Shown: piece by piece, positions 7,498 through 61,019 of the stretch | How positions within the stretch are numbered: the stretch's first letter is position 1 | Layout: every line of letters begins with the position of its first letter | Assembly: GCA_977017645.1 (NCBI GenBank) | Contig: OZ360250.1 | Coordinates: 15,376,001-15,440,000, forward strand | Direction of reading: 5' to 3' | Source: Torpedo marmorata | Taxonomy: Eukaryota | DNA: 64,000 nucleotides | Program-made: the position numbers and the translations under genes | Notes under the pieces: generated by a model | What the model was told of the DNA's origin: nothing | What the model saw: only the letters and a program-made list of their open reading frames with translations | The model's database searches: none

Positions 7498-8063
7498 GTA
7501 GGCTTCTGGCAGCAGCAGCAGCAGCTTCCTGGCCTTCCCATCACACACCCCTAAACACTTCCCTGCTGAACGCAGCGACACAACACACAGCCCTCAGCAG
7601 CAGTTGATCACAGAAAGGTGGAGTGATTCAGATCACCACTAGTTAATCTCGAAAGTGATGGGAAAGTTTCAACATCTCCCTCAGAATGCAACCAACATGT
7701 AGAGCAAGGCATAATTCAGTGAGTTTGCCTTGCACATTGCAGATAGATCACAGGAAGCTATTGGCATCACCACATGTTTCTGAAATGACACCCACATTCC
7801 CACCCTCCCCAGCGAGTGCTTTCTGTCCAACCTACACTAATTGCGGGGGGTTTGCTCTGGTTTTGTATGTAGTTCCTGTTTCTAACACAGAAATGACGAG
7901 GATGTTTAAAGGGTTGCCAGCTTAAGGATCTAAAATGATTTTGTAAGCCTTGTCTTGTGCTTTGATTGGTTTGTGTGTTATAAGGTGAGGAGGCGAAGGC
8001 CATTTTTCCCTCGTCCCTTACTCTTTTCCTCCTCTCTCTTTTCTCTCTTTCTCTACGCCACAG

Positions 8064-8160
8064 GGAAAAGTTTGAACATGAAGTAAAAGGTCCACGGTTT
8101 GCCAAATTACGCAATTGGCATCATGGTCTGTCTGCACAGATCCTTAATATTAAAGGTTAA
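8064..8160 (+). CDS. LDB3: LDB3 short-isoform (LIM-less) terminal coding exon
   Basis: Long pyrimidine tract then ccacag|. Encodes (R)EKFEHEVKGPRFAKLRNWHHGLSAQILNIKG*, matching the short-isoform C-terminus RERFETERNSPRFAKLRNWHHGLSAQILNVKS*. Confidence 0.96.
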
Positions 8161-8374: not shown

Positions 8375-11032
8375 ATGTTAAAAGTCCTGTTTCTGTATAA
8401 AGAGTCAGCTTCTATATCTGTCGAGTCCTTTCAAAGAAGTGTTAGGGAATTATTAAAACTGTTGGCTTCCTTGTATTTGTGCGAGTGCAGAGAGAAGGGA
8501 CTTGCTATCTCGGTGATGTGTGAGTGACAGGGCTGTCTAGCACTGAGGGAATGCTCACATAACACAGTTGGTTTGACACAAGTCAGATAACGGGGGGAGA
8601 CCCAGGGGGAAAAAATGGAGAATGATTGGCCTGGTGCTTAGAATAATGGGTAGCATCTGATGAGCTCATTGAGTTGACAACACATGATTTGCTTCTCTTT
8701 CTCTGTAAGGGGTGCCGGGCAATGTTTATGGCAAATTTTTATCTACTGAAGGCAATTTAATATAATATTACATTTCTGTTTTATTACATGACAATAAATA
8801 GTATCTGATATGATCTGATTTTGGTGACAAGTCAAATACACAAACGTGCTGCATCCATGGACGCTGCGTGACCTGCTGAGTTTCTCCAGCACGTTTGTGT
8901 ATTGCACCCAACCCCAGAATCTGCAGACTTCCTTGTCAATTTATTGTGCCAAATCACAGTAACTAACTTATCAACGCGATTACTGAACAATTTCTCGATA
9001 TGGGTAGTGAAACATTTTTGATTGTACTGATGTATTTACAATATTTACATTATTCTCATTTCAGCATTATATTACCAATGCACATCAAATTAAAACACCT
9101 TGTCCAGAATGCACTCCCCCCTACTGTACCCACCAGTCTCAAAAGGCCTCCAAAGCACCACCATTACTGACAGTAACATTTTATTCAGGATTAAATTACG
9201 GTAACTAATGAACTGCTTTAAAATTCTCCAGCTGCCTTTGTGAGATTTCAACTCATTGCCTCTGGAGCATTAGCTCAGGCTTCTAGTTAGCCACGTAACA
9301 TCACCACTAAGCTACCACTGCCCTCCACTTACACTGTGTTTAACCTCTTGGCAAAGCAAATCCTGTGGCCATTTGGTTTAAATAGTTGATAGCTTGAGGC
9401 TTATGTTTGGTTGCTCCTTTCCAAAGGTCAGACTCAACGCTGGCTAAAGCCAATCGAGTTAATTATTCTCGTCACATTTAGTGAAATAATTAACCTGCTC
9501 TTGCTTTGTTTCTCTTGACAAAGTGGTGCAGCGTGACAGGGCTTATTCTGGGTTTCCGACTGCATTCAGATGAGAAGGGTAAGACTGGTTCGAAACACAT
9601 AGTGTGACCTCGAGGCACGAGCCCCCCCCCCCCTGTCCCAAGAACAACATTGGCAAATTTAACCAAGTTCCAAACACATCAAGGGTTTTTGCACATTGGA
9701 CTTAGATGAATATGTACACTGGTTGCATAAGGCTTTGTGGAAATTACTTCCATCAACCAGATGAGGTGAAGATATTTTTCAATACCTGTGATGTGTGAGC
9801 ATTCCTTCAGAAAGGGGAAATTACGAGTCCTCCATTGAATATTTAACTTCTGGAGGTGATGTGTCAAATGTAGTTCGACTGCCCTGGAAGTGATGGTCTG
9901 TAAAGGGATGGAGTGACTGGTGAAGACTGGCCGTGGTAATTGTGACACACCCCACTGTGATTTTTGCAGAGGACATTCTTCCATTGCTCCCCTGTCCTCT
10001 CCTCCTCCCATTCTTGGAGTCTTGAGCCCAGGTACCCCGTCAACCCATCCAATTGGCCTTTCTTTATCCTGGGCCTCAGCAGCCTTGCCAGTGGAATGTT
10101 CTACTGCGGCGAGAGTCCCTTGGGCTCGGTTCCGTGCACCTTTGCAGGGCAGAGCTGCCGTGAAGTTCTTTCACCTCCACCCCCATCCCCCAGTATATTT
10201 CCACAGCCCCTATGCCCACCCACCCCAGCTCACTTTGCCTTGCCAACAGTACTGAAGCAAAAATCTGGCACCCATGCCTGACTCAGGTCACCACAGGACC
10301 TGCTGCTGGTCTGCTCTGCTCTCGATACCCGATACAAGAAGCAGAAAGCAATGTCGTTCACACAAATGTACAGAGCGCACCATATTCCAAGAAACAGGTT
10401 AATGAGTGAAACTGCAAATGCAGGTGGGGTGTGTTATACATAGGGAATGACGCTGTGGTAGTGTGGAGCAAGTGGATGCTGGCATTTGAACCACATCTAC
10501 AACCTCCCATTACCCCACTTGTCTTTCAGTCTGGGTTCAGTGGTTGGATGTGAATGATTTCAGTCAACTCATTGGGAGTGGACGTTAGCTGGAGACGAGG
10601 TTCTGGTGTAGTGAGGTTGTTTGGTGAAAGGCACGATGTGATTATCTGGTTTCTGTATTCTCTGCTTGACTCCTTTTGGTTTGCAAGTTCTCTGTATATA
10701 GCAGCACTTTTTTCTCTGAAATAAAACAAAAATCAAGTTCAAAAAAGAAATTAGATCCTCTTCCAATTTTTTTCTCTGTGTGGCTAGTGAGACACTCCAT
10801 TTCGACCGCAATCCCTTTGTTTGAGTCAGACAGTTCAGCTGTTTAATTATTTGAAGGCTGCTTCAAAGAGGCAGTTCCTGGGTGGTGACTGGTGAACTCA
10901 GTGACAGATGATTTAAGAGGGCAGATATTCAAACAGGACAGCAGGATCCACACCACAAATGGGGCTCTATTTTCACCTTTGGTGAATGTTTCACTGCCTC
11001 AGGTCAATATTGTGAAGTTTGCAACTGAAGTA

Positions 11033-23602: not shown

Positions 23603-24025
23603 ATCTGTCCACGGCCTCATGCACTGCCACACCAAGGAGAAGCAACACCTAATGTTCGTCTGGGCACTCTCCAACCGGATGGCATTAACATCGACTTTTC
23701 CGGTTTCTGATAGACCACTCCCCGTTCTCCCTCTCTTCCCCATCCCTCTGTCTCCTTTCCTCCAGCTCTCCACCCCTTCCTTCCATTCACAGAGCCACCC
23801 CCCCTTCTCGTTTGCTGGTGTCCCATCCCTCCCTTATCCACCTATTACCTCCTGCCTGTGGGCCTGTTCTCCTCCCCCTGCCCCTACCCCCCCCCCCTAC
23901 CATTTTGTTCAGGTGCCTGCATACCTTGATGAAGGGCTCAGGCCTGAAACGTTGGTTACGCATCTTTATCTTTGCTACATAAAGTACACTGACCAGCTGA
24001 GTTTCTCCAGCATTGTGTTTTTACT
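23603..24025 (+). mobile_element. Penelope-like element 3' fragment (end of GIY-YIG ORF, 3' UTR, hammerhead-like motif)
   Basis: Encodes ...QHLMF.LGTLQPDGINIDFSGF* in shifted frames. Same family as 46410-47000. Confidence 0.8.
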
Positions 24026-24535: not shown

Positions 24536-26178
24536 CAGAACACAGAACAATACAGCACAGTACAGGCCCTTCGGCCCTCGATATTGTGCCGACCCATATA
24601 TTCCTTCCTAAAAAAAAAGTACTAAACCCTCCCTACCCCATAACCCTCTATTTTTCTTTCATCTATTTGTTTGTCTAAGAGTCTCTTAAATGCCCCCAAT
24701 GTTTCAGGCTCCACCACCATCCCTGGCAAGGCATTCCAGTCACCCACAACTCTCTGTGTAAAAAAACTTACCCCTGATATCTCCCCTAAACTTCCCTCCC
24801 AGCACCAATAGCCTGAATACGACTGGGATTGTCTGATCTCGGAAGCTAAGCAGGCACAGGACTGGTCAGTACCTGGAGGGGAGACCGTCAAGGAACACCA
24901 GGTGCTGTAGGTTTCTGTGAGGGGCGCTGGACAAAGTAGTGACTCTCTGTCTGCCTTATGGTAGACAAAAATTAAAGAATTTCATGTATGTTACATTCTA
25001 AATGTAGTATTACGTGACAATAATGGAACCATTTACCCTTAACTTTGTACATATGTCCTCTGGTGTTTGCTGTTCCTGCCCTGGGAAAAAGGTGCTGGCT
25101 GTTCACCCTATCTATGCCTCTCATAATCTTGTAGACCTCTATCAAGTCTCCTCTCATCCTTCTACGCTCCAAAGAGAAAAGTCCCAGCTCTGCTAACCTT
25201 GCCTCATAAGACTTGTTTTCCAATCCAGGCAACATCCTGGTAAATCTCCTCTGCACCCTCTCCATAGCTTCCACATCCATCCTATAATGGGGTGACCAGA
25301 ACTGAACACAATACTCTAAGTGTGGTATCACCAGAGATACGTAGAGTTGCAACATGACCTCTCTACTCCCGAATTCAATCCCCCTATTAATGAAGCCCAG
25401 CATTCCATAGGCCTTCTTAACTATCCTATCAACCTGTGCGGCGACCTTGAGGGATGTATGGATTTGAACCCCAAGGTCCCTCTGTTCATCCACACTCTTA
25501 AGTAACCGACCATTAACCCTGTACTCAGCCTTCTGGTTTGTCCTTCCAAAATGCATCACCTCACACTTATCCGGATTGAACTCCATCTGCCACTTTTCTG
25601 CCCAACTCTGCATCCTGTCTATATCCTCTTGTAACCTTCGACAACCTTCAGCTCCATCCACAACTCCTCCAACCTTCGTGTCATCCGCAAACTTACTGAC
25701 CCATCCTTCCGCCTCTTCATCCAGGTCAGTTATAAAAAATCACAAAGAGCAGGAGTCCCAGAACAGATCCTTGCGGCACTCCACTAGTCACCGACCTCCA
25801 GGCAGAATACTTTCGTTCTACTACTACTCTCTGCTTTCTTCCTACAAGCCAATTTTTTATCCACACAGCCAAGGTTCCACTGATCTCATGCCTCATGACT
25901 TTCTGGATGAGTCTCTCGTGGGGGACCTTGTCAAATGCCTTGCTAAAATCCATGTCGACCACATCTACCGCCCTACCCTCATCAATTTCTTTTGTTACCT
26001 CCTCAAAAAACTCAATTAGGCTCGTGAGGCACGACCTTCCCTTCGCAAAGCCATGCTGACTATCCTTGAGTAGACTGTACTTATCCAAATGCTCATAGAT
26101 CCTATCCTTAAGAATCCTCTCCATTAGTTTGCACAACACTGACGTAAGACTCACCGGTCTATAATTCCCAGGATTCCC
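24536..26178 (-). mobile_element. CR1 LINE, 5'-truncated RT, interrupted by a 5S-derived SINE
   Basis: SLTSVLCKLMERI, QHGFAKGRSCLTSL, DFSKAFDKVPH, GVPQGSVLG, WQMEFNPDKCEVMHFG, HLEYCVQFWSP. Confidence 0.93.
24801..25037 (+). mobile_element. 5S rRNA-derived SINE (SINE3-type), near full length
   Basis: 24801-24914 aligns to 5S rRNA (gtctgatctcggaagctaagcagg...tggtcagtacctggaggggagacc...ggtgctgtaggttt). It is followed by a ~120-nt non-5S body and tail shared with 57104-57261. Confidence 0.85.
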
Positions 26179-29003: not shown

Positions 29004-30239
29004 GTGCGAATGCAGAAAATGAATTTTCAATGACATGTTGCACTTCATGGTTTTGTGTACTTGAAGTAGACTTAAAATATGACAGGAAATCACAAAATAG
29101 ATTACATCTTAAAAACAGTACGTGATAGGAAATTTTTAAGGTGATTTTCGTGATCAGCAGCCCAAAATCTATAAAATACACCCAAAAGTGTTCAGGAAGC
29201 AAAATCTTCATTGTCCAGTGTCATCGGTGGGGAGATGGGAAAGGGATGGGATTGACTGACTCGTGCACAGAGGCCGTCGGCTGGTTAGCAGCAGCATCAC
29301 CGGTCAGAAGGAAGGGCCTCGACCCAAAACATTGACCGACCATTTCTCTCCACGGATGCTGCCTGACCACCATCTGCAGACTTGGTCTTTCTCTGCACTG
29401 TGGTCAACGTCCCCTTGCCTGTCCCCAGTGAACAGGCAAGGAGCTGGCACGCAGGACACTCACCCTGCTCTCACCCGCCAAAGTCTGCTCAAGACTTGAG
29501 ACATTCTGAAGGGGATTGTATGCGAACGTTCAGCTTTTGACAAACTGAAGCCAGTCTAAGTATTTCTTCAGCCTGAATCGTTGACTGTTTCTCTTCCCAC
29601 AGACATGTCCTGACCTTATTAATGTAAAACCTGCTCTTCTCTCAATGCACGTATCCTGGGACTCCCCCTGTGTGTGATAGAGGAATCCTCGGGGATTCTG
29701 TTCCACGCACTCCGTGTTCCTCACCTAATCTTCCATTACAGTTGCAGATCCCTCTGCCACAGAGTGTGTGAATCCTTGTTCAGCCTCTGGGAGTGGGACT
29801 GCCCTGTCTGGAGATTGCCCGTGGCTTGCATGCTGCCTGTGGAACAGTTCGGCAGGGCTTTGCTTTGCTCAGTGTGGCTTTGCATATCCACGAGATTTAA
29901 GCAGGTACGTTGCTGTCTCATAGACGCTGTTAACAGGTGTAGGGAGTGCAGAAGTGCCTCGATACCTCATTAAAATAAGCCTCCACGAAATTTAAAGCAT
30001 TCTGTGATCATCAGGAGACAGGCGCCCATGTTCTAAATCAGCAGGGAAACGCAAGAACGGCACATGCTGGAATCGAGTGAAAAATTGGAGAGAAGTTGGA
30101 GGGACTTGGCATCTCCACCCGACCTGCTGACTGACCATTTTCCTTCACAGATGCTGCCTGATCTCCTGAGTCCCTCAGCTTTTCTTCATTCACTCGTGTT
30201 CTTAATTAACAGCTATATTCAGAGGTGCTCCATATTCTC

Positions 30240-30575
30240 CAGCTCCCCACCCCCTTCCCTTCCGTCTCCTGTCCCACAACTTCCCCCCCCCCATCACCTC
30301 ATCTTTTTTCTCTTCTACCCTCCCACCTGTTTTCATGGATTACGTCTTACCTGCTAGCCTGTGCTCTTCCCCCTGCCCCTTCCTCCCTCCTCTCCTCCAC
30401 CCCCACTCCCACCACCTTTATATTCAGTCGCCTGCCTGTTTATGCTTATACCTTGACGAAAGGCTCAGGCCCGAATGTTTACCCTTTACTTCCTATAGAT
30501 GCTGCGTGACCTGCTGAGTTTCTCCAGCACTTTTGTGTATTGCACTCAACCCCAGCGTCTGCAGACTTTCTTTTT
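30240..30575 (+). mobile_element. Penelope-derived 3' fragment
   Basis: C-rich UTR, then ataccttgacgaaaggctcaggcccgaa and the conserved gacctgctgagtttctccagca box. Confidence 0.7.
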
Positions 30576-43377: not shown

Positions 43378-43650
43378 AGATGCTGGAGGAACTCAGCCAG
43401 TCTCACAGCATCCATAGGAGGTAAATATATATTACCGACGTTTCCGGCCTGAGCCCTTCTTCAAGGTTCAAGCCCAAACTGTCAGTTATATATCTTTACC
43501 TCCTCAGTCATATCTTGAAGAAGGGCTCAGGCCCAAAACGTCGGTAATATATCTCTACCTCCTATGGATGCTGCGAGACCTGCTGAGTTCCTCCAGCATT
43601 TCTGTGTGTTTACTACAATCACAGCGTCTGCAGACTTTTGTGTTTCACTG
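43378..43650. mobile_element. Palindromic non-autonomous Penelope-derived element
   Basis: About 85-bp inverted arms (tgctggaggaactcagc...gagcccttcttcaag / cttgaagaagggctc...gctgagttcctccagca), each carrying the hammerhead-like motif. Confidence 0.8.
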
Positions 43651-46409: not shown

Positions 46410-47000
46410 CCCTTCCCTACATCGGAGAGACTGGACGCAGACTGGGAGATCGCTTCGCTGAGCACCTTCGCTCTGTCCTCATCAGTGACAGGGATCTCCC
46501 AGTGGCCAACCACTTCAATTCTGCTCCCCACTCCCACGCTGATGTCTGTCCATGGCCTCGTGTAATGTCAAACCAAGACCACCCGTAAATTGGAGGAGCA
46601 ACACCTAATTTTCCGTCTGGGCACTCTCCAATTGGATGGCATAAACATCGACTTCTCCAGTTTCTGCTAGCCCACTCCCCGTTCTCCCTCTCTTCCCCAT
46701 CCCTCTCTCTCCTTTCCTCCAGCTCTCCACCCCCTTCCCTCTCCTTTCACAGAGCCATTCCCCCTCCCCTTGTTTGCTGGTGTGCCCTCCCTCCCTTCTC
46801 CACCTATTACCTCCTGCCTGTGGGACTGTGCTCCTCCCCTTGCCCCTCCCCCCCCCACCATTTTGTTTGGGCGCCTGCCTACATTTTGAAATACCTTGAT
46901 GAAGGGCTCAAGCCCGAAACGTTGGATATGTATATTTATCTTTTCTATATAAAGTACACTGTTTGACCTGCTGAGTTTATCCAGCATTTTGTTTTTACTT
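46410..47000 (+). mobile_element. Penelope-like retroelement 3' fragment with GIY-YIG endonuclease remnant
   Basis: Manual translation YIGETGRRLGDRFAEHLRSV...LPVANHFNS...RKLEEQHLIFRLGTLQLDGINIDFSSFC* (one frameshift/stop), then C-rich UTR and hammerhead-like motif at 46891-46927. Confidence 0.9.
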
Positions 47001-49139: not shown

Positions 49140-50125
49140 ATACACAAACATGCTGGAGAAACTCAGTAAAAACACAATGCTGGAGAAACTCAGCAGGTCA
49201 AACAGCACACTTTATATAGCAAAAATAAAGATACATAACCGATGTTTCGGGCCTGAGCCCTTTGTCAAGGTAGTTTGAGAGCACCAGGGATTACAGATTA
49301 GGCGCAGTGAGAGAGATGCTGGAGAAACTCAGCAGGTCATGCAGCATCTATAGGAAGTAAAGGGTAACCAACGTTTCGGGCCTGAGCTCATCTTTGCAGC
49401 TTGAGAGCAGCAGGGATTGCAGAAGAGGAGCAGGGAGAGAGACTAGCAGAACTCCCTTCGAAGAGAGGTGGAGAATTCCTCGATGAGACTTCGCAGCGGT
49501 GCTGCTGAATGGAGTTAAAACAGGTAAGTCTGCAGACGTTGTGATTACAGTAGCATACACAAAAGTGCTGGAGAAACTCAGCAGGTAAGGCAGCATCTAT
49601 AGGATGTAAAGGATAACCGGGCTCAAGCCCAAAATGTGGGTTACCCTTTACTTGCTATAGATCAGGGGTAGCCAAACTTGCTTAACGTAAGAGCCACATA
49701 TGATAAACTTCAGATATTTGAAAGCCGCAAGACATGACAAAATATTACATACACGTTTTTACTTTTACATGCATATTTTGTACAAAAATTTTATATAAAT
49801 ATTAAGAAAATCATGTACGCAATAATATTTATTCATGGATGTGGTTTTTAAACTGCTAATTTGCATTAGTTTCAATAATCAAAGAGTACACATATACATA
49901 CCAAATATTTTCAAAATCCTGACTGACTTTCTGTGGAAATCACTGCCCAAGGAAGCATTATCTGGTATCTCCTCCAGCCAACATATTTCCGCGAGCCACA
50001 CATTACATGTCAAAGAGCCACATGTGGCTCACGAGCTGCGGTTTGGCCAACCCTGCTATAGATGATGCATGACCTGCTGAGTTTGTGTTATTCATTACAA
50101 TTGCAGCATCTGCAGATTTTCCTGT
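49140..50125. mobile_element. Cluster of Penelope-derived short units in mixed orientation
   Basis: Four or more tgctggagaaactcagcagg boxes with gtttcgggcctgagcc motifs. The last unit is palindromic and split by a hAT MITE. Confidence 0.75.
49663..50055. mobile_element. hAT (Charlie-like) MITE
   Basis: TIRs CAGGGGTAGCCAAAC / GTTTGGCCAACCCTG. Perfect 8-bp TSD CTATAGAT at 49655-49662 and 50056-50063. Confidence 0.92.
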
Positions 50126-51040: not shown

Positions 51041-51136
51041 AATGTCCTTTGGCCGTTAAAAGATGTTTGAGAACTTGGCTCTGAGAATTTGTGTGGGCGA
51101 AGTTTGAAATCTTATTGTTATCTATCTTTTATTCAG

Positions 51137-51509
51137 CTCCTCCTGCACAGGTGCACAGCAGCACGGCTGCATTTAATGTCACTAAGCCTGCTGCGGTCCC
51201 AGAAGCTGTGCAGCCACCGGCTGCAGTGTCGAGCAGCCGGCCGCCGTGGATAATGGATGACAGCTTTGCCCAGAAGTTCCAGGCTGGGAAAAGCACTACC
51301 ACGCTCACCAAACACATTCAACCTTTGCCACACTCTGCGCCCCCGAAGCCACCGGTGTTGACCGCGCCTCAGGCTCCTGCCCACGAGCCTCCACATGTCC
51401 CGCTGCCAGGGCAAACAGCGGGAGGCATCCGCAACCTGGTGCAGAGGGCAGAGAGATTCCCTGCCAGCAGTCGGACCCCTCTGTGTGGACAGTGCAACAG
51501 TATCATCAG
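51137..51509 (+). CDS. LDB3: LDB3 linker exon ending in the start of LIM1 (373 nt, phase 1 to 2)
   Basis: attcag| ... ATCAG|gtgcag. Contains SRPPWIMDDSFAQKFQAGKSTTT and VQRAERFPASSRTPLCGQCNSIIR, both diagnostic of LDB3. Confidence 0.96.
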
Positions 51510-52378
51510 GTGCAGACACCGCCCTTTCTTGATCTCCTTTAGCCAAGGCACATTTGTGAATTTATTTGTAATTTTGTTCGGTGAAAGAGGAAGGGCCATC
51601 CCTTCTGTTATCCCTGTTCAGCATAGGGTTTGGTTATAGGGAAGTAACAATGGAGATGAAGCCAAGGAAATGGGGGCCAGGTTTGAGGCTGATGTTGGGA
51701 ATAAGGCCCTTGGTGTGGCTTCATCCAAATGAATAGTAGGTCAGGGAGAAAGGCCTGGAGGGGGTAGAATTGGAGGCAGGGGTCTTGTCATTTTTTTTGG
51801 CACATCCAGGGGAAATCATGGGGGCTATAAATGAACTAGGAATGGGCCTTTGCTTTGGGAATGGAGAAGCAAGGAATCACCTGGAACAAGGAGTGCCAAG
51901 GGCCAAGCAGGTCTCCCAATAGACCGATTTTGAACGTTTTTGAGACAGTTGCTTACTTGGTTATACACAGAGAGTTCAGAGAGAAATTAACTCTTCCATG
52001 GAGCACGTTGATCTTGCGGTTGTGAATGGATGGGATGGTAAAGTGAGTAACCTTGTCAATGATGGGTTGAGTTGTGAAGAATGACCCTCTCCTGCATGGT
52101 GTTTGTACATTTTCTTTATAATCCAGGACTAAAGGATAGTGTTTAAAATCCAGATATCAAAAGATAATGGGAGAATGTTGAACAATTGTGTAACAGAGGG
52201 AAATTGTATTAACGAACTGATTACCAATAAGGGTGTTGGATCATTTCCTGTTAGGAGAGGAATTTGCCGGATTGTTCATTGCAGAATCACGGGGTGAAAG
52301 GGTAGCTGGTTTGGAAGGGTGTGTTAGCTCTCTTCCCCACATACTATTACTGTACAATATTGCTCCTTCTGTCTCCAG

Positions 52379-52559
52379 AGGTCCTTTCCTTGTGGCATTG
52401 GGTCGTTCCTGGCACCCGGAAGAGTTCAACTGCACCTACTGCAAGACCTCACTGGTGGATACCGGTTTTGTAGAGGAGCAGAACAACATTTACTGCGAGC
52501 GATGCTACGAGCAGTTCTTCGCTCCAAACTGTGCCAAGTGTAATGCAAAGATCATGGGG
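52379..52559 (+). CDS. LDB3: LDB3 LIM1 / start of LIM2 exon (181 nt)
   Basis: ctccag| ... GGG|gtaggt. [60 protein letters not shown] has the LIM zinc-finger Cys/His spacing. Confidence 0.97.
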
Positions 52560-52777
52560 GTAGGTGAAGGTTTGTGATGAACAGTGTTGTCAGCAAACAA
52601 GTAGGTGGCAGCACTGAGCCAGGCGAGGAACCGGACATTGCTACACCAGTTGGAGAATGAAATGATCCACTCATTTCCGGGACCACATCTATAGGAAGCA
52701 GTCCTGAAATACATTGTCTTGCTGAAAAGTCTGCTTAATTTGTATTGCATGCACATTTAGAAGCAAAATATACAATG

Positions 52778-53225
52778 TAAAACACAATGCTGGAGAAACT
52801 CAGCAGGTACTTTATGTAGCAAAGATAAAGATACATAACCAATATTTTGGGTTTGAGCCCTTCATCAAGGTATGAGCAAAATGTAGGCAGGCGTCTGAAT
52901 AAAATGGTGGGGGCGGGGGGGGGAGCACAGTCCCACAGGCAGGAGGTAATAGGTGGATAAGGGAGGGAGGGAGGGCACACCAGCAAACAGGGGAAGGGGG
53001 GATGGCTCTGTGAGAGAGGGAAGGGGGGGGGAAGCAGGAGGAAAGGGTTAGGGAAGAGAGAGAGAATGGAGAAGTGGGCTAGCAGAAACTGGAGAAGTGG
53101 ATGTTAATGCTAGAGAGTGCCCAGACGTTTCTGAGTTTCTCCAGAGTACACTGTTTGACCTGCTGATTTCTCCAGCATTGTGTTTTTACTTCAATCACGG
53201 TGTCTGCAGACTTTCGTGTTTTACC
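52778..53225 (-). mobile_element. Penelope-like 3' fragment with inverted terminal segment
   Basis: 52778-53110 is the reverse complement of 46640-47000. 53145-53225 is the terminal box in + orientation. Confidence 0.82.
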
Positions 53226-53484
53226 CATATAACAATGTGTGTAAGATGTTATCAGGGACAGAAACTCTGGGTTATTTTACCATTCATCCAGGGACTCAGT
53301 CATCGATCAGAAGCATCACCTCTCTTGCAGACACTGCCTGCTGAATTTGTAACACATCCCTTGTATCCATCCACTCACCAGTCATGTTTCCTTTTAGAGA
53401 CAAAGAGATATCAATGCCTAACAGCTGGTCCTTGAAATGTCTCGCAGAGTGCAGGAATCATCCTCAGCTGCTGGACAAGCCTGC

Positions 53485-53772
53485 ACATAAGAACATAAGA
53501 AATAGGAGCAGGAGTAGGCCATTCGGCCCATCGAGCTGCTCCGCCATTCAGTGAGATCATGGCTGATCTGATGATAGGCTCATCTCCATCTACCTCCCTT
53601 TTCCCCATATCCCTTAATTTCCCTAATTTGTAAAAATCTATCCAACCTTGTCTTAAATATATTTACTGAGGTCGCCTCCACTGCTTCAATGGGCAGCGAA
53701 TTCCATTGATTCACCGCCCTCTGGGAATAGCAGTTCCTCCTCATCTCTGTCCTAAATCGACTACCCTGAATC
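53485..53772 (-). mobile_element. CR1 3' fragment
   Basis: RRNCYSQRAVNQWNSLP and (cataagaa)n tail. Same subfamily as 12126. Confidence 0.82.
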
Positions 53773-54682
53773 TTTTTTTTCAATATTTTATTTTAAATTT
53801 TCACACAGTAATAATATACATTGTTAACTTCAGAGAGATCTTTTATAGTTACCATATATTGTATTACATAGTGTATCTACCCCTTCCCTTAACCCCCCCA
53901 ATCCCTTATAACATTTTTCAAACATTTCAAATTAAAATTATTACTTAATATTTCTAATCCCACCCTCTACCCACTCCCTCCCCTTACATTCCCTCCCCTT
54001 CCTAAAATCTACAAAAGAAAAGGAAAAAGAAAAAAGAAAGAAATATAATATTTTTCTTATAAAAGACATCTATGTGGATCGCCCGGAGATTCATAGTTCG
54101 ACGCAAGGTTTTCAACAGTGTTTTTATTATTTAAATTTGAGGGAGTTCGCATATGGCCTAGGGTATGGAATAACACATCTACATATTCATACCTAATGAT
54201 TGGATATATGGACGCCAAATTTGCAAAAATACCCCATATTTATTTCTCATATTGTATGTTATTTTTTCCAATGGAATACAACTCTGTATCTCTGTATTCC
54301 ATCTTTCCATACCTAAATTTGTATCTGATTTCCAAGTTACTGCTATACACTTCCTCGCTACCGCTAGGGCAATTTTAACACATTTCAATTGATATATTGA
54401 TAACTTCAAATTTGGTCTGGTTCCTTCAACATTCCCTAATAAAAATAAATCAGGGTTTTGTGGGAGTGTAACACCCGTAATTTGCTTTAACAAATTCCCT
54501 AATTCCACCCAGAAGGGTCTTACGAACATAACCAAGTTGAATGTAAAAAAGTTCCCACTTCTTCACCACATCTAAAACACTTATTTGGTAATGCAGATTT
54601 CATTTTATTCAATTTTTGTGGTGTAAGATATAATTGGTGTAAAATGTTATACTGAACTAATCTATATCTTACATTAATAGTG
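53773..54682 (-). mobile_element. L1-clade LINE 3' fragment
   Basis: INVRYRLVQYNILHQLYLTPQKL...CFRCGEEVGTFLHSTWLC...ARKCIAVTWK...LEKITY. Poly-T at 53773. Confidence 0.88.
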
Positions 54683-54759
54683 TGCCAGGACCCCCTTAAA
54701 TGTGCTGTGACCCCCCTGGGGGCTGTATGTCTACCGTAGAGTGTAGGAGGATGAGGGGT

Positions 54760-55085
54760 GACATTATAGAGGTTTATTAAATCATGAATGGCATGGATAA
54801 AATGTTCATCCACAGGGTAAACAATACTAGAATGAGAGGATTTAAGGTCAGAGATTTAAGAGGGATCTGAGGGACAACCTTTTCACCCAGTGGGTGGTTC
54901 ATATCTGGAACGTTTCTGGAGGAAGCTTTTGAAGCAGGCACAATTACAACGTTCAAGACACGTGGGCAGATATGTGGACAGAAAGGGCTTAGAAGGATAC
55001 GGACCAAATACAGGCAAATGGGACTAGCCCAGAATGCCAACTTGGTTGGGCCAAAGGTCCTCTTCCATACTGTATGACTCTATGA
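54760..55085 (+). mobile_element. Old CR1 3' fragment
   Basis: gacattatagaggtttattaaatcatgaatggcatggata...gatctgagggacaaccttttcacccag. Confidence 0.65.
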
Positions 55086-55387
55086 CAGCCCCTTGTCCTT
55101 ACTTAACCTCCACGAAGATTCAGAGTACGTTGACCATGATCTGGAAAATGAATTCATTCCACATTCCCTTCTGCAGAATCCTTCACCATGCTTTGCCTTC
55201 TTGTAATCCAATTGCCTGGCCACACCCATCTTTGCTATCCAATCTGGTTCAACTGGCTTTGTAATATATTATTCTCTGTTGAACATGGTAGGTCAGGTTT
55301 CATGCTAAACAGTTGGCTTCATTTTTTCACCAAACTGGAATTTACTGTTAAGTAAATCTCTATAGATTTATACGGTATTATAATTAT

Positions 55388-55548
55388 TGAACAAGGTTGG
55401 ATAGATTTCTACATAGTAAGGGAATTAAGGGATATGGGAAAAGGCAGATAGGTGGAGATGAGCCTATCATCAGATCAGCCATGATCACATTGAATGGCGA
55501 AGCAGGGTCGACGGGCCGGATGGCCGACTTCTGCTCCTAGTTCTTATG
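55388..55548 (+). mobile_element. CR1 3' tail fragment
   Basis: Reverse complement of 53485-53650. Confidence 0.75.
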
Positions 55549-55650
55549 AATTCGGGATTGCTTGTGCTTGGGCAAAATACTTACTTTCAATATTATATTC
55601 ATTGGAGAGTCATCATTCTACTTTGCTGATTGGGCTGTTTTCTGTTGCAG

Positions 55651-55771
55651 GAAGTGATGCATGCCTTGCGACAGACCTGGCACACCACCTGCTTTGTCTG
55701 TGCTGCCTGCGGAAAATCTTTTGGGAACAGTCTTTTCCACATGGAAGATGGAGAGCCCTACTGTGAAAAAG
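55651..55771 (+). CDS. LDB3: LDB3 LIM2 exon (121 nt)
   Basis: gttgcag| ... AAAG|gtgcgt. [40 protein letters not shown]. Confidence 0.97.
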
Positions 55772-55847
55772 GTGCGTAGAGCTGGCTTCAAAGTCCACTG
55801 GTAAATTGGCACGCATGGTGAAACACGTGTATCTTTTTCCTCTTCTA

Positions 55848-56232
55848 CTTTCAAGATTCTTTTATTGTCATGTAATAAAACAGAAAATGTGATATTACAC
55901 AAGATTTCCTTTAGTCTACCGCAAGGCAGATTTGCCGTTGGCAGAAATTGCCCGGCGCCCTTTATAGTCAGAGAAAGTGAAGCAAGAGGGTCGTCCCCCC
56001 AGAGTCACTGAGTGTCTGTGGATTTCCCTCCAGCCTCTGCAGCCAAACAGACTTTAGTCCAAACCATTGGCAACTCGAGCTCCAGATCCAAACCTCCGAC
56101 ATGATCAGGAAGCCTTCAGTGCCCGAGGCACCCTCTCACATCTCAGTTCTGGTACCTGGTACCCTTTCAGCCAGTCTCAAGCAGTCTGCAGCCTGGTGCG
56201 AGTTCCCTTGACCGTAGTCACCAGCAGCCCAC
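55848..56232 (-). mobile_element. Unclassified non-autonomous retroposon with ACAATAAA-type tail
   Basis: Co-linear with 57673-58060. Reverse complement ends ...atgacaataaaagaatcttgaa. Confidence 0.65.
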
Positions 56233-56798
56233 ATCCTGCTCCCCTTCCCCATCAATAACTCCTGCTGACATTTGGTGCCAAGACCCATCCTGGCAACCCT
56301 CCACTTCAATTGGAAGGTAGAGCAAGTAAATCCCACATAAGCTGAGAATAAATGAGTGACAGTAGCCCTGTCTTATGGGTTCTGCTTTCCATGATAACTG
56401 TCCTTTAAAAGACAAATGATCTCACGCTTTAAAGAAAGGATTTGTGCAAGTTTATTTAAACATCATTTGTACAGGAAAGTTCAAGCACGTGTTTGATGTC
56501 ATCAAAGTGAAGGACTAATAACTGAAAACAGAACCAGCCTGACTTGGTCTTCAGTTGCCTTAGGACACTGATTCTGTAATGGTAATTCTGATTACTCCCA
56601 ACTCCTTGTGGTGCAGCTTCTTTGGCTATGTCTGCTATTAGGTGACAGGTACCTGCCAGTGAGTCACAAAGATTGAGTGAATAATGAAAGAAACACGCTA
56701 ATTTACTGATATAATTTCCTGTGAATGCTACTTGCATAAGTCATATCTGTTTCCAAAGAACATGTTTTAATTTTGCTACTGACAACATAATGATAAAA

Positions 56799-57050
56799 GG
56801 GCAGCACGGTTGGCGTAGCGGTTAGTGCAACGCCTTTACAGCGCCAGCGATCAGGACTTGGGTTTGAATCCCGCGCTGTCTGTAAGGAGTTTGTACGTTC
56901 TCCCCATGTCTGCGTGGGTTTTCCCCGGGGGCTCCGGTTTCCTTCCACCATGAAACGTACCGGGGGTGTAGGTTAATTGGGTGGCACGGACTTGTGGGCA
57001 GAAATGGCCTGTTACCGTGCAGTATGTATGTCTAAATTTTTTAAAAAATT
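56799..57050 (+). mobile_element. V-SINE (only young copy in sense orientation)
   Basis: gggcagcacggttggcgtagcggttag (A box), gggtttgaatccc (B box), V domain, tail. Confidence 0.88.
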
Positions 57051-57103
57051 AAATTTAAAAGTATTCCAAGCAGGAACTCTTTCCTCAGCTTCTTGGTGTT
57101 AAT

Positions 57104-57261
57104 AGACCGCCAAGGAACACCAGGTGCTGTAGGTTTCTGTGAGGGGCGCTGGACAAAGTAGCGACCCTCTGTCTGCCTTACAGTAGACAAAAATTAAAGA
57201 ATTTCATGTATGTTACATTCTAAATGTAGTATTACGTGACAATAATGGAACCTTTACCTTT
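57104..57261 (+). mobile_element. 5'-truncated copy of the 5S-derived SINE
   Basis: Near-identical to 24882-25035. Ends ggaacctttaccttt. Confidence 0.85.
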
Positions 57262-57672
57262 TATAGTAAATGGAGGGAGGGCTGCAGGTTTAAGGAAAGA
57301 TTGGATAGGCTGGGTTTATTCCCGCTGGAAGGCTGAGGGGTGACCTTACAGGGTTTATAACATTATTTGGGACATAGATGGGTTAGATGGTCAGAATCGT
57401 TTCCCCCCTCAGAGGAGCAGACTGTGCAACTCGAAGATTTAAGTTTAAGATGAGAGAGGGAGAAATTTAAAGGAGATCTGAAGGGCAGGTTTTTCCACAA
57501 AGAAAGTAGTGAATATCTGGAACGAGCACCAGGGGTGGTGGTGGAGGCAGATGCAATGACAGCATTTGAAATACATAATGGGTACTTGGACAGGAAAAGC
57601 GTGGAGGGAGAGGGGGCTAATGCAGACAAATGGGATTAGTTTAGTTAGGCACTGTGCTCTGCTTGGACAAGG

Positions 57673-58060
57673 TTCAAGGTTCAAGATTCAATTTATTGTC
57701 ATAGTAATAAGACAGTGTCATATTCCATGAAATTTCTTTTTGCCTGCTACAAGGCAGACAGATTCGCCACCGGCAGAAATTGCCTAAGCGCCTCTTACAT
57801 TCCTTAAAGCAAAAGAGAGTCCCACCAGAGTCACCGAGTGTCCATAGATTCGCCTCCAGCGCTTCCGCAGCCTCCACAGCCACACAGAGTCCAGTCCAAA
57901 CCATCGGCAACCCGAGCCCCAGATCCGAACCTCCAACACGGTCAGGGCGCCCTCGGCACCCCCTCGCATCCCGGTTCCGATACCTGGTACTCCTCCAGCC
58001 AGTTCGAGCAAGCCTCCAGCAGTCCGCAGCCCGGCGTCAGTCCCCCGACATCAGCTGAAA
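57673..58060 (-). mobile_element. Unclassified non-autonomous retroposon, second copy
   Basis: Tail ACAATAAA(TTGAAYC)n on the minus strand. Body shared with 55848-56232. Confidence 0.65.
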
Positions 58061-58384
58061 GGGCCAGTTCCGGCACTGTACGATTCTATGATAAATGCTG
58101 CAGAAAATAAATGATAATACTGATGTAGCTGCATCATCAGCAACCCTTTCTATTATCAGAAAGGCTGAAATGGGAAAAGTCCCTTGAATCCAAGAATCTT
58201 CCATCCAGTGATGCCCACGTCAGCCATGGATTGTCCACTTTGCCGTACAAAGTCTCTTTGACCCACAAGACAGATTTCAAATATGGCTTCTCAATTAGTT
58301 CTCCATTTGGCCTTTTATACATTTCCAAACAACTTGGTCCACTTTTTGTATATTGATTTCCTCAATTTAGCTTTGATGGTAAGC

Positions 58385-59345
58385 AGTGGAAGTGGCAGAT
58401 GAAGTTCAATCCGGAAAAGTGTGAAGTAATACACTTTGGAAGATTGAACTTGAAGGTAGGGTACATGGTTAATGGCAGGATTCTTGGCAGTATGGAGGAA
58501 CAGAGGGATCTTGGGGTCCAAGTCCAGAGATCCTTCAAGGTTGCTGAGCAAGTCGATAGGGTGGTTGATAGGGTGATTACGAAGGCGTATGGTATGTTGG
58601 CCTTCATTAGTCGGGAGAGTTGAGTTCAAGAGCTGCAAGGTAATGTTATTTAAATATTTGTTTTTTACTAATCTCTTTTTAATTCAATCAAGTATACTGT
58701 TTCGTTGTTCTCTTCGTTTTTTTTTAACAAAGTACCTGTTCAGCTGCAACAAGAAAGAATTTCTGTGCATATGTACATTGTACAATGTATATGACAATAA
58801 ACTCATTGTCATTATCATATTGCAGTTCTATAAATCTCTGGTTAGACCACACTTGGAGTATTGTGTTCAGTTCTGGTCACCTCATTATAGGAAGGATGTG
58901 GAAGCTTTGGAGAGGATCAGGAGGCGATTTACCAGGATGCTGCCTGGATGGGAGAACATTTCTTATGTAGAAAGATTGAGCGAGCTAGGGATTTTCTCTG
59001 GAGCGATGGAGGATGAGAGGCAGTTCAATAGATGTATACAAGATTATGAGAGGCAGAGATAGAGTATACAGCCAGCACCTTTTTCCCAGGGCAGCAATGG
59101 CCAATACCAGAGGGCATCCATTTAAGGTGAATGTAAGAAAGTTTAGGGTAGATGTCAGAGGTATGTTTTTTATACAGAGAGTGTGGATGCTTGGAACGCA
59201 GTGCTGGGGATGGTGGAGACTGGCACAATAGAGACTTTTAAAAAAACACATCTGGGTGCAAGAAAAATGGAGGGCTATGGGCTCTGAGTGAGTGAAGGGT
59301 TAGGTTGATATGGAGTAGATTTATACAAGTTGGCACAACATGTTC
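58385..59345 (+). mobile_element. CR1 LINE 3' fragment with an internal insertion at about 58650-58818
   Basis: WQMKFNPEKCEVIHFG, YKSLVRPHLEYCVQFWSPHYRKD. Confidence 0.88.
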
Positions 59346-60839
59346 TGTGAACTCATGCTCTATTGAGTTGCTAAGTACCAAATGCATTGAAGCTTCTTTA
59401 CTGGTGTCCTGCTCCTTGTTTTCTGAGTTGATGGCAAGTTGTTGGTGCCTCCTCCCCATTAGTATCGATTGACCAGTGAATTGATTTTCTATTTCCCCTT
59501 GTTCCTTGCTCCCTCCTCCTGACCATGTCTTGAAAGCACCACATTAGTATTCTCAGCACTTCACACCAAGTTTCTAACTTACTCAAAGGGAGAATAAAGA
59601 TAAACCTCTTGCAGTTTTTGCATCCTTTTTATTGTTCCCCCACTTCTATTCAACTGTCCTCTATTTGCCTCAGACAGTGGCTCCCAAGTTTCTGGGAATG
59701 CAGGCGAGCGAGACCCAGAGGTTGTTGAATGGTTTTCCCATTTAAAGTGATCAGTTTTCCTCCAGTTTATCAGCAGACAGACTGATTGAGAGTGTGACAG
59801 GGCCTCCTGGGGAATAAAGGATCGAGTCGGATCAAGGTGACTGCAGGCGGGAGTGAAGAGTGCCAGCTTTGGGAGACGGTAATTCCTGTTCCACCAGGTC
59901 TGCACACAGTGCTATAAATGGAACCAGGCCTTATTACCTCCATTTTACCAGGCTGTTCCCCAAGTTTGGTTTACCCAGCCCTTTAGTTAAAGAAAAAGTA
60001 CTGAATGAATGTGGCAAATGACCTCCTGAGATGATTTTAGTGATGAACCAACCTCCTGTTTTTTTTTGGTACTTTTAGTTTCACCTCTTCTTTGCAACAC
60101 TTTCTTCCAAACTTAGAATTGGGTGGGGTGGAGTCTAGTTGTGGATTTTAGAAACGTCTTCTTTGATGTCTGATCCAGATCCATTCCATCTTAGAAATTA
60201 AAACTCCTCCCGCTGAGAGCAGCTCAAATAAATTTGATATCCTGGCAAATCCATGCCTTCCTGGTCTCTATATTTTGGCGTGGTTCTGTATGCTAGCATG
60301 TGCAGCATTGTGAATTCAGAAGTTACATCTCATTTCCAAAACCTTAGCAATATTTAAGCTTGTCTTTAATAGATTCTTTATGGCCCTTTGGTACTTTGCT
60401 CTTTCCATAGACATTCGCATTTTGGAGATCTGAGGAGTCCATTTGTCAGAAGGGTGGTGGTGGTATTGAATTGAAAAGGCAGGTTTTACCATATTGTGTA
60501 GCTGTACTGTTCACTGGAAAGGGCAAACTGCCTCTAGCATGAGACACCTAGTCAGTTTCTGAGGGAGAGCTTAATTGCCCCACAGAGAAGTTACCTATTA
60601 AGGCACAACTTGAGGTAATATAAAGGCTGCTGTTTTATCTTCTGGTAACTCGTGACCTTGGCAGAGGTCCAAGAATGTGTCACTGATTTTGCTCAGCTGA
60701 ATGCAGTACATTGAGGAAGTTCCTCTATTGCATACTTTTGTTCTCTTGTTTCTTGATTTAAAATGTTTATTTGTCTTGCATTTCATTTTCTTTTCTCCTT
60801 GCTGATAAACGGAAGTAAAAGACTTTCATTCTTTTCTAG

Positions 60840-60955
60840 ATTACATTGCCCTCTTCAGCACAAAGTGCCATGGCTGTGACTTCCCTGTGGAGGCTGGAGA
60901 CAAGTTCATTGAAGCACTGGGATATACCTGGCATGATACCTGCTTCGTCTGTGCT
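60840..60955 (+). CDS. LDB3: LDB3 LIM3 N-terminal exon (116 nt); the final exon lies beyond the window
   Basis: ttttctag| ... GCT|gtacgt. (D)[38 protein letters not shown]. Confidence 0.97.
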
Positions 60956-61019
60956 GTACGTATGAAGTTACAGCCGCTTGGAGACAAACGCAGCAATTTT
61001 ATTGAAAAGCTTGTAAACA

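Follow-up and report, generated by a model that had tools for sequence, protein, structure and literature searches.

Minimal hammerhead ribozymes (min-HHRs) in the pseudo-LTRs of metazoan Penelope-like elements (PLEs) have type I topology with no stable helix III, a palindromic ACGU, an extra nucleotide that separates position 9 from 10.1 and a G10.1-C11.1 pair; they occur mostly in solo truncated copies and cleave slowly even as dimers (Cervera & de la Pena 2014, PMC4209133; this report, PMC11167929, PMC8557442, PMC3846280 and PMC3088659 are cited from excerpts). The published alignment of 56 rows, none from cartilaginous fish, includes U3-A8 cores in S. mansoni rows 3 and 4 and a U3·G8 core in the PLE-associated Saccoglossus row 1, on which we found no comment in the excerpted text (PMC4209133). 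In natural U3-A8 core covariants the 3-8 pair is still Watson-Crick (Perreault et al. 2011, PMC3088659), and in a type III hammerhead activity was low in all core mutants except the C3G/G8C swap (Roberts et al. 2023, PMC9901934). For U3·G8 minimal hammerheads, we found no measured rate in the literature searched; Lunse et al. 2017 and Przybilski & Hammann 2007, which lie outside it, may cover U3·G8. Neptune-clade PLEs combine reverse transcriptase (RT), a zinc-finger-like linker plus a GIY-YIG endonuclease at the C terminus, and form partial tandems, inverted 5′ pseudo-LTRs and an optional tail (PMC8557442, PMC3846280); a CX2-5CxxC linker between RT and GIY-YIG marks both Neptune and Nematis (PMC8557442). 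For the Anolis Poseidon element PAc, which has a canonical C3-G8 core, hammerhead mutants insert normally in vitro with uncut RNA as the main template, cleavage requires protein, and the tail arises from two internal start sites (Frangieh et al. 2024, PMC11167929). What hammerheads do in PLEs is treated as an open question in these excerpts (PMC8557442, PMC11167929).

The motif analyzed here, in a 64,000-nt stretch of Torpedo marmorata DNA (the window), resembles the PLE min-HHRs in topology, helix III, ACGU, extra nucleotide, G10.1-C11.1 pair, pseudo-LTR location and predominance of solo truncated copies, but differs from the excerpted alignment in that U3·G8 is the dominant core of its family, which has >60,000 exact copies and occurs alongside C3-G8, U3-A8 and U2.1·G1.1 forms in the same genome. 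It shares U at position 3 with the natural U3-A8 covariants, whereas its dominant form lacks their Watson-Crick 3-8 pair. Like PAc, the family has two 3′ end points ~35 nt apart downstream of the hammerhead and copies made through the motif, uncut in PAc and uncut or religated here; unlike PAc, it has a Neptune/Nematis-type linker, and it shares with Neptune-clade elements the order of coding domains, partial tandems, inverted 5′ pseudo-LTRs and optional tail. The initial annotation had proposed a lineage-specific core variant. U3 is indeed fixed in the family, but the novelty was overstated, as U3·G8 already appears in Saccoglossus row 1 (PMC4209133). Direct reading of the window gave the same letters for the motif at 46891-46927 (+) as that annotation. 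The element copy and the parts of its motif are as follows.

46418..47000, + strand: 5′-truncated Neptune-type PLE copy with the endonuclease coding end and 3′ pseudo-LTR (from DNA identity to intact element L255)
46418..46664, + strand: GIY-YIG endonuclease remnant with one frameshift (tblastn, translation)
46890..46895, + strand: helix I, 5′ strand, with C2.1 at 46895 (sequence and folding)
46896..46903, + strand: core U3-U4-G5-A6-U7-G8-A9 plus the extra A, with U3 at 46896 and G8 at 46901 (gap-free alignment with C3 sister copies)
46904..46915, + strand: helix II, 4 bp with a 4-nt loop (96.9% of cells paired and none changed on both sides in 24 copies)
46916..46923, + strand: G12-A13-A14, palindromic ACGU and U17 (sequence; numbering after PMC4209133)
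between 46923 and 46924, + strand: predicted cut (numbering after PMC4209133)
46924..46930, + strand: 3′ strand of helix I, containing a single bulged base (folding)

Twelve of the 13 conserved core positions (boxes CUGANGA and GAAA and the NUH site) are present, the exception being U3 opposite G8. Judged by sequence, this departure weakens the label of a canonical core and leaves the assignment to PLE minimal type I hammerheads intact. The extra nucleotide that separates position 9 from 10.1 and the G10.1-C11.1 pair are both present; the A after A9 had been called unusual, but an extra nucleotide at this site is conserved in PLE minimal hammerheads, whose consensus is CUGANGAH (PMC4209133). 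The 15.1-16.1 palindrome (ACGU) provides no monomer helix III (self-duplex −1.7 kcal/mol), and helix III is predicted to form only as a dimer. Folding gave a helix II of 4 bp and a 4-nt loop rather than the 5 bp and 2 nt described earlier, and the proposed ACC/GGU closure of helix I applies to this copy with GGA in place of GGU on the 3′ strand. The core register is fixed because C3 sister copies align without gaps; a register keeping C3 with an inserted U was ruled out by this alignment and by the helix I pairs that it would lose. A search of Rfam with E values up to 10 returned three matches, none of them a hammerhead. By anatomy the motif is a minimal type I hammerhead of a PLE, as the earlier reading had it, with putative catalysis.

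The sequence at 46418..47000 aligns with the 3′ end of L255 at 76% DNA identity across 587 columns. Upstream of the motif, where a GIY-YIG remnant had been reported, the frameshifted coding end matches the 1047-residue L255 frame with a tblastn E value of 3.5e-28 and 78-81% identity. The L255 protein carries DKG, RT and GIY-YIG motifs together with a linker of the form CX4CX2C at residue 915, and its YIGET is at 965 of 1047. Uninterrupted frames of 1047-1049 residues are present in 3 of the 11 long elements fetched, and these intact carriers have U2.1/U3/G8. Element L031 has an open frame of 725 residues similar to RT and GIY-YIG, with a motif copy on the 3′ side and an inverted one on the 5′ side. 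The motif is located in the pseudo-LTR of an element with RT and GIY-YIG domains, for which the Pfam matches (RVT_1, E 3e-4; GIY-YIG, E 6e-4) fall under the curated cut-offs. In tandems, motif-to-motif spacing is 4.0-4.8 kb, and partial tandems continue past a single unit across an intact motif. The element is best assigned to Neptune-type PLEs, the clade being taken from the linker motif alone, which Nematis shares. The window copies are dispersed truncated ends of this coding element rather than the non-coding tandem units, each with a hammerhead, of non-LTR retrozymes. Nine long copies on different contigs (L223-L229, L238 and L239) have a common upstream tandem-repeat flank with 91-99.6% identity, which indicates that a single insertion was multiplied inside a satellite.

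To determine how often U3 occurs, we counted exact motif copies genome-wide, allowing any base at positions 3, 7, 8 and 17 and at one loop position. This count gave 12,514 copies, 128 of them with C3-G8 in the helix I context of the U3 family. An unbiased random sample of 1 Mb contained 49 matches with 42 readable cores (39 U3 and 3 C3), and reversed-pattern genome controls gave 0 matches every time. These counts and the sample rule out post-insertion decay as the source of U3 and agree with the earlier view of U3 as a family state. C3 sister families (2,087 matches to a looser pattern) include some with another helix I, having U-A where the U3 family has C-G. Position 7 is U, A, C or G according to subfamily while the other core positions hold, in a set enriched for pattern-selected copies, and tails diverge between subfamilies while the core is conserved. 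Among 24 hand-picked related copies, pairs changed on both sides numbered 0 of 4 in helix II and 3 of 6 in helix I; 13 cells were changed on both sides compared to 7.2 in shuffled sets (2 of 500 shuffles), and 3 pairs were changed compared to 3.5 (437 of 500). An absence of covariation in helix II had been proposed as grounds for rejecting the ribozyme, but that comparison does not discriminate because helix II hardly varies. Many U3 copies have an altered fourth helix II base (2,682 matches non-C, often A, breaking the pair). The sequence of helix II is self-complementary as well, and a dimer formed through it can compete.

A scan of the window that ignored position 3 detected eight family copies, four per strand, and the same scan returned 0 matches in five of five shuffled windows. 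In addition to the copy at 46891-46927, these are:

23921..23957, + strand: family copy (U3, U7, G8) with a short endonuclease remnant (pattern scan and alignment)
30448..30484, + strand: older decayed family copy (U3, C7, G8; pattern scan)
43433..43546, one copy per strand: inverted head-to-head pair (U3, A7, G8; pattern scan)
49237..49273, − strand: family copy with C7-A8, most readily explained by CpG decay from C7-G8
49366..49402, − strand: degraded eighth copy, absent from the earlier list (pattern scan)
52837..52873, − strand: decayed family copy (U3, U7, G8; G12 lost; pattern scan)

All six other copies that had been listed are present. For the C7-A8 copy at 49.2 kb, CpG decay, which had been allowed for, fits best. 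The window copies span several subfamilies and have 72-93% identity to their nearest sampled relative. The "older variants" reported near 29310, 36253 and 50401 are degenerate motifs, as described, but were missed by the family scans; they appear to derive from repeat families of greater age whose hammerheads have different core changes.

Across the genome, U3-A8 cores were found in 545 exact copies compared to 260 for a G5A control. Among the matches listed, 24 of 100 A8 copies were C7-A8, a fraction with the pattern expected from CpG decay, and 60 of 100 were U7-A8 with a CAA loop. With C17, U7-A8 copies numbered 193 compared to ~39 estimated for the matched G5A control, an estimate extrapolated from 15 of 100 among the control matches listed, counted by eye. 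The U7-A8 copies have common flanks and occur in inverted pairs. On core-masked trees of 31 of 93 copies and of 63 of 235 copies (85 reached the coding end and 22 of the youngest were dropped at random), U3-A8 copies clustered, requiring 4 changes compared to 10.6 in shuffled sets and 3 compared to 13.0, respectively, with 0 of 500 shuffles as low; both trees are midpoint-rooted, and their A8 part lacks resolution. The U7-A8 excess, common flanks, inverted pairs and clustering indicate that a compensated U3-A8 subfamily was amplified, and CpG decay as the source of all A8 copies is ruled out by the U7-A8 majority, flanks, pairs and clustering. From the sequences compared, this amplification predates the youngest subfamily. 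The U3-A8 subfamily (L044-L076) is placed at the base of the clade that includes the youngest G8 copies; A8 may have been a stage that the active lineage went through before returning to G8, or else a side branch.

The youngest subfamily has U at 2.1, which makes a U·G closing pair in helix I, together with G8, and is present in 51,829 exact copies. Its median identity to the nearest copy is 99%, compared to 87% for C2.1 copies, and it includes elements with intact frames of ~1,050 codons. In predicted folds, which leave out tertiary contacts and protein, the core strand of this form pairs with the cut-site strand at an energy 4.1 kcal/mol below that of the hammerhead fold, with a probability of 1.0 that G5 is paired, the largest misfolding gap among the forms folded; the gap was 0 kcal/mol for C3 sisters and U3-A8 and 2.2 kcal/mol for C2.1/U3/U7/G8/C17. 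Natural C3 revertants had larger gaps than matching U3 copies (4.0 vs 2.2, 1.9 vs 0.0 and 0.8 vs 0.0 kcal/mol), and the C3U change may relieve a modeled misfold. In all 12 copies folded as two strands, the active dimer was 5-19 kcal/mol above the best fold. Six folds compared with shuffled sequences were not clearly better (z from −1.64 to 0.15). In family copies generally, a rod can form by pairing between the core strand and the cut-site strand CGUC, with a predicted strength that depends on positions 3, 7, 8 and 17.

We mapped the ends of 77 tail-bearing copies from the 1 Mb random sample relative to the cut site. The 3′ ends were concentrated at +70 to +79 (17 copies) and +100 to +114 (45 copies). 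At the 5′ side, 12 copies started at −40 to −31, just before helix I, a possible reverse-transcription stop at the folded motif; 3 of 77 started at 0 to +4 and resemble inverted junctions, and the 15 that start at +25 or later belong in part to divergent subfamilies whose BLAST alignments stopped short, rather than marking true ends. Five long elements have a direct upstream pseudo-LTR, and none of them begins at the cut site; neither these nor the 77 sampled copies showed a pile-up of ends there. Copy ends lie beyond the motif on both sides, indicating that templates held an intact motif, uncut or religated, states that leave the same DNA copies.

On balance, we consider it probable that the motif is a Neptune-type PLE pseudo-LTR hammerhead with a fixed U3·G8 core that acts as a weak, conditional cutter, is copied from templates with an intact motif, and is present in the LDB3-like gene of the window as passive insertions. 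The type III mutant data and the slow cleavage of PLE minimal hammerheads make a weak, conditional cutter the most likely state, and low activity is likely from the mutant data and predicted folds. Cleavage would depend on a partner copy or on protein from the element, new copies would come from RNA carrying the intact motif, reverse transcription would begin at two internal sites ~72 and ~107 nt past the cut site, and selection on cleavage would be relaxed in the youngest lineage. Several points argue against this reading. The conserved core beside a variable position 7 and variable tails suggests continued selection on the hammerhead shape, and the compensatory C-G/U-A change in helix I relative to C3 sisters would suggest the same; the intact motif in DNA copies also fits cut-and-religated circular templates; and the mutant data stem from another hammerhead type.

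The ribozyme might instead be fully functional in vivo, with the wobble tolerated, the motif refolded by protein, and cutting and religation producing circular or unit-length templates; U3 may then be favored, as pairing of C3 with G1.2 would trap the core as an inactive rod. A core kept across subfamilies though position 7 and the flanks change, stronger predicted misfolding of C3 revertants than of matching U3 copies, partial tandems exceeding one unit through an intact motif, an amplified and tree-clustered U3-A8 subfamily (193 copies vs ~39) and published protein-assisted cleavage (PMC11167929) are each consistent with such a ribozyme. We nevertheless regard full function as unlikely, as the largest and latest burst has G8 again with a further wobble at the closing pair, the cut site shows no accumulation of copy ends, and cleavage was not required in the published in vitro system as excerpted (PMC11167929). 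Less probable again is that the motif is a catalytically dead relic with another pseudo-LTR job (promoter, protein binding or reverse-transcription stop). The 12 of 77 truncations just before helix I, the great success of hammerhead-less PLE clades (PMC8557442) and the predicted complete burial of the core in the youngest form (P 1.0 for paired G5) would fit a relic, but the variable position coincides exactly with the free position 7 of hammerheads, and amplification of the compensatory A8 form is more easily explained by selection on the 3-8 pair.

We tentatively suggest, at somewhat less than even likelihood, a stepwise weakening of the hammerhead while the element thrived, from C3-G8 to U3·G8, through a transient compensated U3-A8, and then to the largest and latest burst, where U3·G8 is joined by another wobble. 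If true, this series would offer evidence from nature that PLE hammerheads can be dispensed with, or that they stay off until refolding by the element's protein. The genome holds four natural forms of a single ribozyme with their copy numbers and relative ages, a series in which cleavage rate can be compared with transposition success. Neither new chemistry nor LDB3 control is indicated.

The host gene, which we take to be LDB3 from its presumed peptide motifs, has these features in the window:

8060..8160, + strand: LDB3-like short-isoform last coding exon (start approximate; peptide motif match)
51085..61000, + strand: four LIM-domain exons detected in the host gene (approximate bounds)

The initial annotation had noted that all sense copies lie downstream of the short-isoform exon, such that cleavage would affect only LIM-containing pre-mRNA. 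This position needs no explanation because 87% of the window lies downstream of that exon, which ends at 8160. Tail-bearing copies number 11 in the window compared to a genome mean of 4.9 and a same-contig mean of 7.2 per 64 kb (Poisson P ~0.11 by hand against the same contig); an apparent LDB3 enrichment, from 8 copies in the window against a 200-kb background of 1.9 per 64 kb, was weakened by the 1 Mb sample and the same-contig rate. That the host employs the sense copies for cutting or tuning LIM-containing LDB3 pre-mRNA is unsupported and highly improbable. Such use might be suggested by the four sense copies located after the short-isoform last exon and before the LIM exons and by the 11 tail-bearing copies against the genome mean, but the strands are balanced 4:4 with no bias, the density is ordinary for the contig, the copies come from several subfamilies with ordinary decay, and the nearest sense partner of the 46891-46927 copy is 3.4 kb off. 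Passive insertion is the likely origin of the copies in LDB3 introns. A sense pseudo-LTR tail fragment with no recognizable hammerhead is located at 8860-8936 (+), ~700 nt past the short-isoform stop codon. Elsewhere in the window, the stretch at 24795-24912 (+) is derived from 5S rRNA (Rfam 39.8 bits, exceeding the gathering score) and is probably a SINE or pseudogene.
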